Below the pieces are notes generated by a model, which searched no databases, was not told the DNA's origin, and worked only from the letters and a program-made list of their open reading frames with translations. This document shows positions 3,025-16,707 of a stretch of DNA of 19,628 bases, one piece after another. Where the stretch lies: UHGV virus genome UHGV-0278008, one strand, 5' to 3'. The stretch is from a virus. How positions within the stretch are numbered: the stretch's first letter is position 1; each line of letters opens with the position of its first letter. The position numbers and the translations under genes were made by a program.

Positions 3025-3030
3025 GCCCAT

Positions 3031-3055
3031 AAAAAAAGCCCCTCCGGAGAGGGGC
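3031..3055 (-). terminator. Intrinsic terminator, minus strand (end of TerB-like transcription unit)
   Basis: gcccctc/gaggggc stem with 4-nt loop; A7 on plus strand = U-run on minus. Confidence 0.5.
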
Positions 3056-3305
3056 TGACGCTGCGTATCTGTATCATCATGCGCATGGTGCCGGGTGCCT
3101 CCCGGTGAGTTCAGTCCGGTGTCCCTGAACCCGCGTATCTCGATCCAGGTTGTCGTCAGAGATGACACCTTATACACCAGTCGCCCCTCCGCACAGGGGG
3201 ATTCACCATGCGAAATTTTTTTAACAAATGCTCAGTCTGACAGGCAACTGTCAACTGACTGAATTGTGAGACATTTAAAATTTTCGGGGCATGACTGATA
3301 CCCGG

Positions 3306-4068: not shown

Positions 4069-4145
4069 GGCGCGTTGTACTGGATTCGAACCAGTGACCG
4101 ATTGCTTAGAAGGCAATTGCTCTGTCCGGCTGAGCTAACAACGCA
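4069..4145 (-). tRNA. tRNA-Arg, anticodon UCU, CCA encoded
   Basis: Hand-folded cloverleaf: acceptor gcgttgt/acaacgc, D-arm gctc/gagc, anticodon loop cttCTaa, T-loop ttcgaat. Confidence 0.8.
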
Positions 4146-4158
4146 GTGTACCGATAAT

Positions 4159-4235
4159 GGACCGCCATCGAGGACTCGAACCCCGCGCAACCAGCTTCGA
4201 AGGCTGGCGCTCTGTCCCGATGAGCTAATGGCGGT
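4159..4235 (-). tRNA. tRNA-Arg, anticodon UCG, CCA encoded
   Basis: Acceptor ccgccat/atggcgg, anticodon loop ctTCGaa, T-arm cgggg-ttcgagt-cctcg. Confidence 0.75.
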
Positions 4236-4244
4236 ATGTGATAT

Positions 4245-4320
4245 GGTGGCCCTTGCTGGATTTGAACCAGCGACCTGGCGATTATGAGTCGCTCGCTCTC
4301 ACCACTGAGCTAAAGGGCCG
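4245..4320 (-). tRNA. tRNA with anticodon CAU (Ile2-type or Met), CCA encoded
   Basis: Acceptor ggccctt/aagggcc, D-arm gctc-agtggtga-gagc, anticodon loop ctCATaa, T-loop GGTTCAAATCC; same order as ileZ-argN-argO of Stx phages. Confidence 0.8.
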
Positions 4321-8415: not shown

Positions 8416-8571
8416 TTACTTCTCAGATTCGTAGTCTACGAAGACAGCAACCTCCGTCTGGCCGGTTCGGATTCGTACCTCGCAGAGGTCTTTCCTCGTT
8501 ACCAGTGCCGTCACTATGACGGTTAAACAGATGACGATCAGGGCGATTAACATCGCCTTTTGCTGCTTCAT
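8416..8571 (-). CDS. hok: Hok/Gef-family type I toxin (51 aa)
   Basis: MKQQKAMLIALIVICLTVIVTALVTRKDLCEVRIRTGQTEVAVF... is near-identical in pattern to HokD/HokC. Confidence 0.85.
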   Translation of the reverse strand: MKQQKAMLIALIVICLTVIVTALVTRKDLCEVRIRTGQTEVAVFVDYESEK

Positions 8572-8628
8572 AGTCTGCTTCTCCTTGACCTTTCGGTCCG
8601 TAAGAGGCAATCTATATGTGACGAGCAT
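8416..8628 (-). CDS. Mok-like in-frame N-terminally extended reading frame over hok (70 aa)
   Basis: ATG at 8628..8626 with GTGAGG SD; MLVTYRLPLTDRKVKEKQTM- extension resembles recalled MokC N-terminus. Confidence 0.45.
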   Translation of the reverse strand: MLVTYRLPLTDRKVKEKQTMKQQKAMLIALIVICLTVIVTALVTRKDLCEVRIRTGQTEVAVFVDYESEK

Positions 8629-8671
8629 ATAGGGGCCTCACTTCGATTTATAGTCGGGTGGGGCTTTTATC
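8600..8671 (+). ncRNA. Candidate Sok-like antisense RNA; 5' end not determined
   Basis: Plus-strand hairpin gcctcac (8634-8640) / gtggggc (8660-8666) plus U-run 8667-8670, antisense to the mok SD/start; TTGACC at 8585-8590 is a possible -35. Confidence 0.35.
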
Positions 8672-8816
8672 TATCTGCCGTTGGTGTTCATGCCCGAGGC
8701 AGATAGCCTCAAGCACCCGCAGCAATTTTACAAAAACAAACTATTATTTTCTATGTCCTTTCACTTGTCTCATTTCTGACTATACTGATCGCTCACACAA
8801 CACAAAAGGTATAAAA

Positions 8817-9112: not shown

Positions 9113-9457
9113 TCATCGTAAAATATCCTCCTCGCTTATCAGTCCGTTTCGCTTCAGGTAGTCCATCGCTTTATCCGGTAATTTACAGTCCGGCTTCGCT
9201 TTCCTCAGTTGCCAGGTTAACTGCTTTACCAGCATGCTTAACTCGTCGACCAGACGCTGATATCCCACTGGTTTGTATTCATGCAATTTACCGACTGGCT
9301 CTGCTGCCAGCAATGCCAGTGCGATTTCCAGAACAGCAATATCCATCTTATATGTGCGGATGATATCATGGTCGATTGTGCCCGGTATGCACAGTCTCTG
9401 TGCTTCAATAGTCTCCTCTGCGTGAGCTATTAACTGCTCTCTGGTAAAAGTGGTCAT
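9113..9457 (-). CDS. Hypothetical nin-region protein (114 aa)
   Basis: ATG overlapping upstream stop (ATGA); N-terminus shares pattern with the 9971..10396 product. Confidence 0.6.
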
Positions 9458-9969
9458 GCCGCGCTTCCTTCTTGCTTATTAACGATTACACCGTCATATA
9501 TTTCATTAAGGTGTCCCCTCAACTCCATGCGCCTTAATGCAGACAACATGTAATCGCATTCAACCTGCTTATTTCCAGTAAATGGCTTATCGTCAGGCTC
9601 ACCCCAACAGCAATTACCCTTGGGCCACCCATGTACTTTCCGTACTCTTCCGTTAACAACGTGAAGTAATCCCCAGCCAGGTGGTAAATCCTCAATTGAA
9701 ATAATTCCCGGCTCACTGATAAAGAATCTCCAGTCGCCCATGCCAAGAGAGGGATTTTTACGGAAACGCTTTTTTCTATCTGCCAACAAGTCAGCACGAG
9801 AACACTTCGCCTCTATCAGGCATGATGCTGAATTTCTGAATCCCATAGCATCTGGTTGTTCTCCAGTACTGGTTACAGCAACAAAGCGGTCATGAAAGCA
9901 AACCTTGAACCCGTTGCGCTTAAGGAACCTGTACGCAATCTGACAGAGTTCGCGGTGCGTTAACGCCAT
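9454..9969 (-). CDS. Putative PD-(D/E)XK-fold nuclease-like protein (171 aa)
   Basis: ATG with AAGGAG SD; motif PDAMGF-x13-EAK fits PD...(D/E)xK signature. Confidence 0.5.
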
Positions 9970-13736: not shown

Positions 13737-14162
13737 TTAGTGCATCACCACAGCATTCCCTGCCGGGCCGCCGCGATTTATCTGGTCATACAAAACGACC
13801 GCTGACGCAACAAAATCGTCGACATCCTTCACCAGCCGATCCCGCCGTTCGACAATCTCCCGGTAATACTCAGAACTGTGACTGCGCATACGGGCCACCA
13901 GCAAAGGCGGCATCGCCTTTTCGATCGCCGGTAACAGCGCCTGAATTTTTTCAACAGCATCAGGCGTATCCTTCTCCACCCAGCGGAAAATTTTCTGGGT
14001 ATTACGGGCCAGGGCTTCCGGATGGCTGTCGTCATACAGTTCCGGGAACGTCATTCCCAGCTCGAAATACGCTTTGGTAATTTTCGCAGCCGGTACTTTT
14101 TCGCCGTCCGGATGCGCCCAGGCATTCATCGCCATGCGGATGTGTTCATGCTTGATTTTCAT
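13737..14162 (-). CDS. YdaT-like (CII-like) protein, 141 aa
   Basis: MKIKHEHI... N-terminus and length as recalled for Rac YdaT; ATGA overlap with upstream Cro-like gene. Confidence 0.65.
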   Translation of the reverse strand: MKIKHEHIRMAMNAWAHPDGEKVPAAKITKAYFELGMTFPELYDDSHPEALARNTQKIFRWVEKDTPDAVEKIQALLPAIEKAMPPLLVARMRSHSSEYYREIVERRDRLVKDVDDFVASAVVLYDQINRGGPAGNAVVMH

Positions 14163-14413
14163 GAATCAACTCCCATCAGCTTTTTCGTAGTAGTTTTATT
14201 CCTGCCAATAGTTAAAATTGCATCGGCAGAAAATAATCCGTTTGATGCAAGAGCGATTTTTTCAGCGTAATTTGTTTCGCCGGTATATTCTGTGCGAGGC
14301 AATTTTCCGTTATCCATCCATTTATAGATTGCTCTTTGGCTGACACCACAAACGTCGGCCACAACAGCAACGCGAACAGTTTTGATTACATCTTCAAGTG
14401 TTTTCTGGTTCAT
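14159..14413 (-). CDS. Cro-like HTH regulator (YdaS/DicC-like), 84 aa
   Basis: ATG at 14413 with GAGGGTGA SD; HTH VADVCGVSQRAIYKW; divergent from repressor gene. Confidence 0.7.
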   Translation of the reverse strand: MNQKTLEDVIKTVRVAVVADVCGVSQRAIYKWMDNGKLPRTEYTGETNYAEKIALASNGLFSADAILTIGRNKTTTKKLMGVDS

Positions 14414-14492
14414 ATCACCCTCACAATGTGAACTTTGAGTACATGCTATAACAGAACTGACAGTACATTCAAGAGCGAATATCATTGAACTT
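14414..14492. promoter_or_regulatory. Divergent promoter/operator region (OR-like)
   Basis: Two AGTACAT direct repeats (14438-14444, 14462-14468) flanking overlapping -10-like hexamers TATAAC (plus) / TATAGC (minus). Confidence 0.5.
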
Positions 14493-14912
14493 ATGGTTCA
14501 TGAAGATAAAGCGCGTAAAGAGTTCGCCAGTAGGCTTGCGCTAGCCTGTGAAAACGCTGGTTATGAACAACATGGAAGGCAGGCAGAAATTGCCCGTCGA
14601 ATGAAATTAACACCAAAAGCGGTTAGCAAATGGTTTAATGGCGAAACAATTCCTCGCCGGGAGAAATTAAGGGAATTAGCAACACTAATAGGAACAACAC
14701 CAACCTATCTTTTGGGAGAGGATACAGAAGAAAGTGGACAGGTACGTTTCTATCAGGAGTTAAATCCAAGACAAAAAATCATCATTGACCTTCTGGACGA
14801 ACTCCCTGACAGTGAGACAGATGAACTTTTAAAAACTCTTGAAGAGAAAAAACAGAAGTACAATGCAATTTACGAAGAGTTAGCACGAAAGAAAAAACAA
14901 AAAGCCTCTTAA
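14493..14912 (+). CDS. DicA/RacR-like HTH (XRE) prophage repressor, 139 aa
   Basis: HTH RQAEIARRMKLTPKAVSKWFNGE; C-terminal LLDELPDSE...EEL region resembles DicA; weak SD. Confidence 0.75.
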   Translation: MVHEDKARKEFASRLALACENAGYEQHGRQAEIARRMKLTPKAVSKWFNGETIPRREKLRELATLIGTTPTYLLGEDTEESGQVRFYQELNPRQKIIIDLLDELPDSETDELLKTLEEKKQKYNAIYEELARKKKQKAS

Positions 14913-14984
14913 ACCAGCATAAATCCGGTAGCGCCTTCCTCCGGGTTTGTGCTTCACTTTATCCCATCTCATTTTTTTTACACA

Positions 14985-15035
14985 CAAAATGTACTAAAAG
15001 TACTTTACAGCAATGAACAAAAAGTACATTATATA
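14985..15035. promoter_or_regulatory. OL-like operator/promoter region upstream of early-left operon
   Basis: Three further copies of the AGTACAT/ATGTACT half-site (14989-14995, 14999-15005, 15023-15029) around TTTACA and -10-like hexamers. Confidence 0.45.
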
Positions 15036-15204
15036 CCTACCACCCGCCCCACAGAATGCAGGGCAATACTTCGAGTTACCCGGCAGTGGTCAGGGGTTAA
15101 GTAGCCAGCCCGAGGCGTATGAACATGACGGCGGGAACACTTTGTATAACAGCGCAGCAGGTTTTTAGTTCCGCGACCCGGCGTTAAGGGTAAATGAGGT
15201 CAAC

Positions 15205-15608: not shown

Positions 15609-15666
15609 CCATGTGTAGTCTTTGGTGGCATCAGTTCTACTCCGTGACTGCTCTGCCACCCTTTTT
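15609..15666 (+). ncRNA. dicF: DicF-like sRNA (3' two-thirds conserved, including terminator)
   Basis: GGTGGCATCAGTTCTACTCCGTGACTGCTCTGCCACCC+TTTTT closely matches recalled DicF 3' region GGCGGUAUCAGUUUUACUCCGUGACUGCUCUGCCGCCCUUUUU; 5' boundary uncertain. Confidence 0.6.
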
Positions 15667-16149
15667 AAAGTGAATTTTGTGATGCGGTGAATGCGGCTAA
15701 GCGCACGCGGAACAGTTAAAACAAGCGGTCTTTTACTGGCGTAACAGACATCAACTAACAATCCGGCGTTAATTGTTAACTGGTTAACGTCACCTGGAGG
15801 CACCAGGCACTGCATCAACAAAGTTCACTTCGGTGATGAAGGGTAAGAGAAAATGTTGAATGTAGCTATTGAAAACCAGAATGGGTGGAATTATAGTGCA
15901 CCTGCACCTCATAAAGCGGGTGCCGGGCGTGGAAACCCGATGATGACTACTGCGCATAACCGCGCTCAGGCGGTTTTTTTATGCGTAATGCACAGCCACA
16001 TTCAGATTATGGTGGGGCGTGCAGGGCAGCCGAAAGGCTGGCCGGTTTCGGTAGTCACCGGTATTTCCACCCCTGTACGTCTCACCACCCTTATGGTCGT
16101 GGAAAGCCTTGGTGGTGAGTTATTTAAACTGACTATCGAGGCTGCCATC

Positions 16150-16707
16150 ATGGCTACTATCCCTGCCCTTTCTCACCCTGACGTAACCATCGAAAATGGA
16201 CGCGCTGTCACTACGTCTATTGCGATCGCTGAGTTCTTTGGTAAACGCCACGAACGAGTGTTGGATAAAATTCGCAATCTGGACTGTTCAGCAAAATTCA
16301 CTGAGCACAATTTTGTGTCGAGCGAATATACCGACTCAACCAGTCGCAAACTCCCAATGTACCAAATCACCAAAAACGGCTTCGTTTTCCTGGTGATGGG
16401 CTTCACCGGCAAAAAAGCCGCTGCATTTAAAGAAGCCTACATCGCTGAGTTCGATCGCATGGAGAAAGAACTGCGCCAGAATAACGCCCCGTCTCCCGAC
16501 AAAATGATTCACGGGGACGGACGTACCATGGTTATCCGTCTCGACGAACACGGCAATATCAAATTCACTGAAACCGTTCCGGACGGCGCAATGGTCTGCA
16601 CCCTGGATACCTTCCAGTTTTACCTGGAGAAACAAGGCTGGACTCTTGTAAACCGGAGCGCAATTAAAAATATGACTGTGGAGCAATTACTAAAAATTCA
16701 TTGTTGA
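16150..16707 (+). CDS. Rha / ORF6N-domain phage regulatory protein (185 aa from ATG 16150; ORF open from 15853)
   Basis: GAGG SD before ATG 16150; ORF6N/Rha-like motif VTTSIAIAEFFGKRHERVLDKIRNL; upstream in-frame region contains a terminator-like hairpin. Confidence 0.6.
   Translation: MATIPALSHPDVTIENGRAVTTSIAIAEFFGKRHERVLDKIRNLDCSAKFTEHNFVSSEYTDSTSRKLPMYQITKNGFVFLVMGFTGKKAAAFKEAYIAEFDRMEKELRQNNAPSPDKMIHGDGRTMVIRLDEHGNIKFTETVPDGAMVCTLDTFQFYLEKQGWTLVNRSAIKNMTVEQLLKIHC

Follow-up and report, generated by a model that had tools for sequence, protein, structure and literature searches.

HK022-type operators predicted on both sides of a short repressor gene in an Escherichia coli lambdoid prophage

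Introduction

In phage lambda, the divergent promoters PR and PRM are combined with three operators, and PL lies downstream of the repressor gene and is co-directional with it; the operators are 17 bp long, three of them stand at OL, OR1 and OR2 are spaced by 24 bp, and OR2 abuts the −35 hexamer of PRM. Phage HK022 (GenBank X16093) is annotated with 15-bp oR sites at 430, 454 and 487 (TGAACTTATGGTTCA, GGAACTGATAGTACA and TGAACTTATGGTTCA; cI ATG at 494, i.e., offsets of −64, −40 and −7), with oL sites at 1262 and 1286 (TGTACTATTGGTACT and TGAACTTTAAGTACA, 24 bp apart), with a pR promoter TTGACT / CATAAT and with a pL promoter, the −35 hexamer of which (TTTACA) begins at 1276 on the last base of the first oL site and the −10 hexamer at 1299, overlapping the end of the second; the set is completed by two accessory sites, a weak OL3 (1209) and OFR (position 163), the latter 267 bp beyond OR1. 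HK022 CI (235 aa, with an S24-type C-terminal domain) reportedly binds adjacent OR and OL operators cooperatively and loops OL to OR; OL3 and a site ca. 300 bp beyond OR are described in the same source (PMC8053113). Binding by HK022 CI is taken here from the GenBank annotation and from the secondary citation in PMC8053113. A 933W-like phage record displays OR1–OR3 and only two OL sites in the same geometry, with OR3 over the cI start (PMC3202840); the 933W repressor is of full length, its N-terminal domain belongs to the HK022 family, and a cargo of 2.3 kb (stk) is placed between cI and OL.

Short repressors form a second group of described systems. DicA of the Qin prophage (DicA/DicC) and the Gifsy-type proteins GfoR, GfhR and GtgR are helix-turn-helix repressors of ca. 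135–140 aa without a cleavage domain; neither DicA nor the Gifsy repressors undergo cleavage upon SOS induction, and it is antirepressors that inactivate them (PMC10448788, PMC3121763). In Qin, a cro-like gene is divergent from dicA, and a downstream co-directional promoter drives ydfA (DUF1391)-dicF-dicB. CP-933P encodes the short repressor PaaR2 on a leaderless message; its OR and PL-type operators, bound by the repressor and the Cro analogue, are 18-bp repeats (PaaR2/YdaS consensus GTTTAGTAA), and a toxin–antitoxin pair follows the repressor gene. The DNase-footprinted high-affinity site of CP-933P YdaT is TTGATT-N6-AATCAA (PMC9986795).

The DNA analysed here, called the window throughout (UHGV virus genome UHGV-0278008; 19,628 nucleotides, one strand, 5' to 3'), is an E. 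coli lambdoid prophage. In a first-pass annotation the heptamer AGTACAT (complement ATGTACT) had been listed twice between the repressor and Cro-like genes and three times downstream of the repressor gene, each time beside promoter-like hexamers, and the two groups had been proposed as OR and OL of a single repressor.

Results and Discussion

The immunity region

The 1.3-kb immunity segment of the window was found 100% identical in strain CP55_Sichuan and 96% identical in phage Tritos; among 5,426 complete E. coli genomes, 1,033 (ca. 19%) contain at least 80% of it. The module occurs also in Shigella, and a related form in Gifsy-like prophages of Salmonella. Features are collected in Table 1. 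The genes follow Qin in the Cro-like gene divergent from the repressor gene and in the downstream co-directional promoter of a DUF1391-DicF-DicB operon. Two differences from HK022 were noted outside the operators: downstream of Cro the window has YdaT and HK022 a lambda-type cII, and the PL operon is of the dicF/dicB type in the window and carries nun in HK022. The toxin–antitoxin pair that follows the CP-933P repressor has no counterpart after the window repressor.

Table 1: Features of the window; promoters are predicted, and bits are scores of the position weight matrix described in the text.
Feature	Position	Strand	Sequence	Remarks
STnc100 sRNA, three tRNA genes and sok antitoxin RNA, together	3025–3240, 4071–4319, 8569–8718	−		late region
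Sixth pattern match	9632–9646		TGTACTTTCCGTACT	one mismatch; 10.7 bits; inside ORF 9454–9969
DnaC-like gene and O-like replication gene		−		
YdaT gene (cII analogue)	13737–14162	−		Pfam YdaT_toxin match
Palindrome	14152–14169		TTGATTttcatgAATCAA	perfect; spans Cro-like stop and ydaT start codons
Cro-like gene	14159–14413	−		84 aa
OR1	14429–14443		TGAACTTTGAGTACA	exact match; 18.8 bits; covers predicted PR start region
Predicted PR	−35, 14472–14467; −10, 14450–14445	−	TTGAAT-16-TATAGC	Cro-like/YdaT/replication operon
OR2	14453–14467		AGAACTGACAGTACA	one mismatch; 18.7 bits; in PR spacer; central CTGACA = PRM −35
Predicted PRM	14457–14485	+	CTGACA-17-TATCAT	promoter scan, 10/12 matches
OR3	14486–14500		TGAACTTATGGTTCA	exact, perfect dyad; 21.0 bits; contains repressor ATG
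Repressor gene	14493–14912	+		139 aa; ATG at 14493; Pfam HTH_3
OL2	14990–15004		TGTACTAAAAGTACT	one mismatch; 24.3 bits; last base = first base of PL −35
Predicted PL	15004–15032	+	TTTACA-17-CATTAT	promoter scan; −10 at 15027; DUF1391-DicF-Rha/AnrP-like-DicB-exonuclease-integrase operon
51-aa ORF	15013–15168			starts inside OL1, upstream of predicted PL transcription start
OL1	15014–15028		TGAACAAAAAGTACA	exact match; 21.7 bits; overlaps PL −10
DUF1391, DicF, Rha/Ash (AnrP-like), DicB, exonuclease, integrase		+		downstream of repressor; RefSeq annotation and Rfam
DicF	15610–15661	+		Rfam; predicted PL operon
Rha/Ash ORF	15853–16707			284 aa; overlaps isrK and C4
isrK	15904–15980	+		Rfam; predicted PL operon
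C4 antisense RNA	16005–16092	+		Rfam; predicted PL operon

Five dyads and their match to HK022

Dyads of 15 bp with the consensus TGWAC-N5-GTWCA (extended form, A-TGWAC...GTWCA-T) were located at five places, three upstream of the repressor gene and two downstream of it; with at most one mismatch allowed, the pattern matches six times in the window, five of these at OR and OL. Offsets from the repressor ATG are −64 (OR1), −40 (OR2) and −7 (OR3); centre-to-centre spacing is 24 bp for OR1–OR2 as well as for OL2–OL1; OL2 begins 78 bp after the repressor stop. A symmetrised position weight matrix, made of sites from other loci alone with the twin of the window excluded, gave 18.7–24.3 bits for the five sites and 10.7 for the next match in the window; maxima in shuffled sequence averaged 8.5 (top, 16.6). 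The score is partly circular, since the same pattern had served to gather the sites of the matrix; this circularity does not extend to the conserved positions. The next match, at 9632–9646, falls within the shuffle range and inside an ORF, and is probably due to chance. Accessory sites of the OFR and OL3 type, both present in HK022, were sought with the matrix, and none above the shuffle range was found in the window; window 14937–51, aligned to HK022 OL3 by MAFFT, was discarded as an OL3 candidate, being without support from the matrix score.

The three offsets are those of the annotated HK022 oR sites; the site sequences are nearly the same in both, window OR3 having exactly the sequence of the HK022 site placed across the cI ATG, and the OL pair has the HK022 spacing. 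The PL hexamers hold the same positions in both, with TTTACA as −35 and its first base on the last base of the first OL site, and PR of the window is positionally homologous to HK022 pR. The proteins agree: BLASTP of the repressor against HK022 cI gave 47% identity (E 6e-32, residues 4–102) and of the Cro-like protein against HK022 Cro 60% identity (E 1e-33); tblastn with the first 80 residues of the repressor gave 58% for HK022 cI and 51% for 933W-type cI. With sites and promoters coinciding with the HK022 annotation, and repressor and Cro both homologous, the earlier proposal of OR and OL operators of the adjacent repressor, arranged by lambdoid logic, is borne out at the level of sequence, and the AGTACAT repeats are in all likelihood arms of five HK022-type operators, to each of which a repressor dimer would bind. 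The system falls within the HK022/933W operator family, which is already known, and brings no new mechanism; new is that an HK022-type specificity module is paired with a C-terminal part of the DicA/Gifsy type and with a cII analogue of the YdaT type.

Other systems agree in part. Divergent PR/PRM with three operators and a PL downstream of, and co-directional with, the repressor gene are common to lambda and the window; the operator sequences are unrelated, the sites are 17 bp long in lambda and 15 bp in the window, three OL sites stand against two, and OR2, which abuts the PRM −35 in lambda, overlaps it in the window. In the 933W-like record most operator arms begin with CG (CGTAC/CGAAC) and those of the window with TG; the recognition helices read SSKGVSKW and TPKAVSKW, respectively. 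Operators of the PaaR2 type gave no match in 14400–15050, the consensus word being absent from the immunity region of the window; two matches with one mismatch elsewhere are at chance level. Identity with RacR or DicA operators was judged from the proteins and is unlikely because the DNA-binding domain of DicA is distantly related to that of the window repressor (29% identity overall) and DicC is unrelated to the window Cro.

Promoters

The hexamers said to lie beside the repeats were recovered at all three predicted promoters (Table 1); by sequence, divergent PR and PRM share one operator set and a second set is placed at PL, which runs in the direction of the repressor gene as lambda PL does. 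PRM and PL were obtained from a consensus promoter scan. PR was read by eye and confirmed via alignment to the annotated HK022 pR; it was left unflagged by the scan because its −10 hexamer is without the final T. This hexamer, TATAGC, is a poor match; it is common to the window, a Shigella locus and phage Tritos, and HK022 and most relatives have CATAAT at the place. The lytic promoter PR may be weaker in the window lineage.

The −10 hexamer of PRM ends 7 nt before the repressor ATG and a Shine–Dalgarno sequence is lacking; the repressor mRNA is therefore probably leaderless, with a start site placed from the sequence. Leaderless messages have precedents in paaR2 and lambda cI (PMC8630535). 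As OR2 overlaps the PRM −35, it is doubtful that PRM is activated by its own product in the lambda style, and the parts played by OR1, OR2 and OR3 may differ.

The ORF of 51 aa that starts inside OL1 is without a Pfam match and absent from the RefSeq annotation; it is probably not a gene.

The repressor protein

The repressor is a chimera: its residues 1–80 form an HK022-cI-like helix-turn-helix domain and are followed by ca. 55 residues alignable to the C-terminal part of DicA (residues 88–137 to DicA residues 83–134). The AF2 model (mean pLDDT 83) comprises the helix-turn-helix domain (1–75), a disordered linker (78–87) and a helical hairpin (92–138). The 139-aa protein is without a Pfam match to Peptidase_S24 and without an Ala-Gly cleavage site; its length and the lack of a cleavage domain are those of DicA and the Gifsy-type repressors. 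The same N-terminal domain is found in proteins of 220–250 aa that carry the S24 peptidase domain (PF00717), as does HK022 cI, where the window protein has the DicA-like helical tail. Foldseek with the AF2 model gave matches at the level of the helix-turn-helix; full-length similarity (SinR, an arbitrium-phage repressor and SPC32H Rep, E ca. 0.02–0.03) was too weak for assignment of the C-terminal fold. Sequence search of the PDB with the repressor returned the helix-turn-helix domain of P22 c2 alone.

The protein might, tentatively, be regarded as a natural domain swap, in which a domain of HK022 specificity, kept together with its operators, was joined to a non-cleavable, antirepressor-responsive module of the DicA/Gifsy type; the odds are somewhat against so specific a history. 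Short repressors of a Pseudooceanicola MAG (122 aa) and of Salinicola (149 aa) were found with the same N-terminal domain and OR sites; their C-terminal tails resemble neither the S24 domain nor the DicA-like tail, which suggests that the C-terminal module has been replaced repeatedly.

With the C-terminal domain replaced, PR −10 weak and the accessory sites OFR and OL3 missing, it might be supposed that the HK022-type operators were merely inherited and are no longer effectively used by the short repressor, in a cryptic prophage where Cro or the cI of a co-resident HK022-type phage would mainly occupy them. Against this stand an intact repressor gene and the wide distribution of the immunity segment in E. 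coli (1,033 of 5,426 genomes, at least 80% covered), the same module in the deposited genome of phage Tritos, an unchanged recognition helix, functional short repressors of the DicA type (PMC10448788) and Gifsy-like prophages of Salmonella, in which the same short repressor type has kept all five sites. Abandoned operators are thus improbable, and use of the sites by the 139-aa repressor is preferred. The Salmonella repressors are 62–65% identical over the full length, and their loci have the same OR1–OR3 and OL pair, the latter after a higBA insertion; an upstream in-frame AUG suggests that one of them (P0015) may be GfhR.

Heptamers as operator arms

Both intergenic copies of AGTACAT were confirmed as exact, at 14438–44 (+) and 14462–68 (+). 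Among the three copies claimed downstream, two are exact (14989–95, − strand; 15023–29, + strand); the third is AGTACTT at 14999–15005, with one mismatch, within the palindrome AAAGTACTTT. A count over the window, as had been suggested, gave 7 exact AGTACAT/ATGTACT against 1.68 expected, a number reached in 0 of 200 shuffles; 4 exact heptamers lie within 622 bp against 0.053 expected (Poisson P ca. 3e-7). Chance origin is ruled out by the shuffles, the Poisson probability, the dyad pattern, the matrix scores and the conservation of columns.

AGTACAT represents positions 10–16 of the extended operator site, and its partner arm (TGAAC or TGTAC) sits 10 bp away. This arm had been overlooked on first reading, as had the third intergenic site over the repressor start codon, and the two left-most downstream copies had been counted separately, being both arms of a single operator (OL2). 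The assignment to OR and OL is thereby kept and the unit is changed: a dyad of 15 bp, present three times at OR and twice at OL, in place of two and three heptamers.

Were AGTACAT alone the recognition unit, OR would hold two and OL three half-sites or direct repeats, all five independent of one another and in no need of a partner arm. The heptamer is over-represented, exact four times and of the same orientation in OR1, OR2 and OL1, which such an arrangement would explain. It would leave unexplained the conserved partner arm at exactly 10 bp from each copy, the equal conservation of both arms in ca. 30 loci and the fact that two of the three downstream copies are arms of one dyad; moreover, OR3 (TGAACTTATGGTTCA) is without AGTACAT and yet the best-conserved site. 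Recognition of the single heptamer is accordingly given a still smaller chance than abandoned operators, and the dyad is retained as the unit.

Conservation in related loci

Species-representative genomes were scanned, and 35 loci encoding relatives of the repressor were obtained. Some 30 of them have the same dyads before the repressor start, with unchanged offsets, and ca. 20 have a dyad pair, 24–25 bp apart, 61 bp to 2.4 kb downstream of the repressor. These loci are from Kluyvera, Klebsiella, Enterobacter, Brenneria, Pantoea, Providencia, Vibrio, Photobacterium, Haemophilus and further Pasteurellaceae, Pseudomonas and Salinicola; the arrangement is thus shared by several gammaproteobacterial orders (Enterobacterales, Vibrionaceae, Pasteurellaceae and others). 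The OR1 offset of −64 is common to ca. 24 related loci, and the OR3 offset of −7 is conserved in those of Enterobacterales and Vibrio. Positions of the PL hexamers are conserved across loci, PRM geometry is alike in HK022 and relatives, and 26 of 29 related loci encode a Cro homologue upstream of the repressor, in divergent orientation.

Column information was calculated for 19 distinct sequences of identical geometry: half-sites, 1.82 bits; non-operator columns, 0.89 bits; spacers, 0.87 (OR1), 1.78 (OR2) and 1.47 (OR3) bits per column. The OR2 spacer is conserved because it doubles as PRM −35 (CTGAYA); the OR3 spacer holds the ATG. Between Tritos and the window, differences inside OR1 and OL1 are confined to spacer positions. 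The recognition helix TPKAVSKW is kept wherever the sites end in TG..CA.

That the conserved words are promoter elements of PR, PRM and PL, and the dyads a by-product of tight promoter packing, is the least probable reading of all: each site does overlap or abut a promoter hexamer and the OR2 spacer is indeed conserved as PRM −35, but conservation is highest in the columns of the dyad arms rather than in those of the hexamers, the same dyad recurs at five places that differ in their relation to the hexamers, and in the 933W-like phage a changed recognition helix goes with changed outer operator bases.

In the loci of Enterobacterales and Vibrio the start codon is part of OR3 (TGAACnnATGGTWCA), and the operator therefore fixes the first repressor residues as M-V-(H/Q); in Pasteurellaceae the ATG is leadered and has the site upstream of it, and the first residues are MIT or MNE. 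The gap from the repressor stop to OL2 varies from 61 bp (HK022-like) to 2.4 kb; it holds cargo such as higBA in Salmonella or the stk kinase gene in 933W-like phage, and has the look of a hotspot for moron insertion within the immunity region.

Proposed regulation

A dimer of the 139-aa helix-turn-helix repressor would bind each of the five dyads. At OR1 and OR2 it would occlude PR at its start region and spacer and shut off the Cro-like/YdaT/replication operon; at OL2 and OL1 it would cover the −35 and −10 hexamers of PL and shut off the DicF/DicB/exonuclease/integrase operon. At high repressor concentration OR3, which spans the point where the repressor mRNA (probably leaderless) begins, would serve for negative autoregulation. 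The HK022-like Cro (84 aa) would be expected on the same operators during lytic growth. Cooperativity of HK022 CI depends on its S24-type C-terminal domain, so that pairwise cooperativity and looping may not carry over to the 139-aa repressor. For this protein we infer binding, cooperativity, order of occupancy, the leaderless start and the route of induction.

Induction would proceed via an antirepressor rather than by RecA-stimulated self-cleavage, as judged from the missing S24 domain and the DicA/Gifsy-type C-terminal part. In the window neither a homologue of the Rem antirepressor nor a perfect LexA box (CTGT-N8-ACAG) was found. The Rha/Ash ORF of the predicted PL operon, with the isrK and C4 RNAs that it overlaps, resembles the isrK-orf45-anrP module known from Gifsy-1, whose AnrP is predicted to act as an antirepressor; a fused form of 287 aa was reported in S. 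dysenteriae (PMC4825925). The isrK/C4 and Rha/Ash (AnrP-like) module is a candidate antirepressor for the short repressor.

Should the specificity of the repressor be that of HK022-family cI, the prophage module would confer an immunity to HK022-type phages that does not respond to SOS; co-resident prophages would be cross-regulated through shared operators and respond to different induction signals, and immunity specificity and induction pathway would be exchanged independently at the linker. The map of five dyads and three promoters applies to a module present in about one fifth of complete E. coli genomes, and PL under these operators drives dicF and dicB, inhibitors of host cell division. 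While the operator architecture persists, the C-terminal domain varies (S24 or short helical), as does the cargo that separates the repressor gene from OL, and the HK022-type operator family is therefore suited to the study of modular evolution of phage switches and of cross-immunity.

Further features

The palindrome at the junction of the Cro-like gene and ydaT matches the footprinted YdaT site of CP-933P and is therefore probably a PRE-type control site of the window prophage. HK022 OFR sits at an equivalent distance from OR1.

In the late region, STnc100 sRNA, three tRNA genes (Arg, Arg and Ile in RefSeq) and the sok antitoxin RNA, the last adjoining hok/gef, were located on the − strand.
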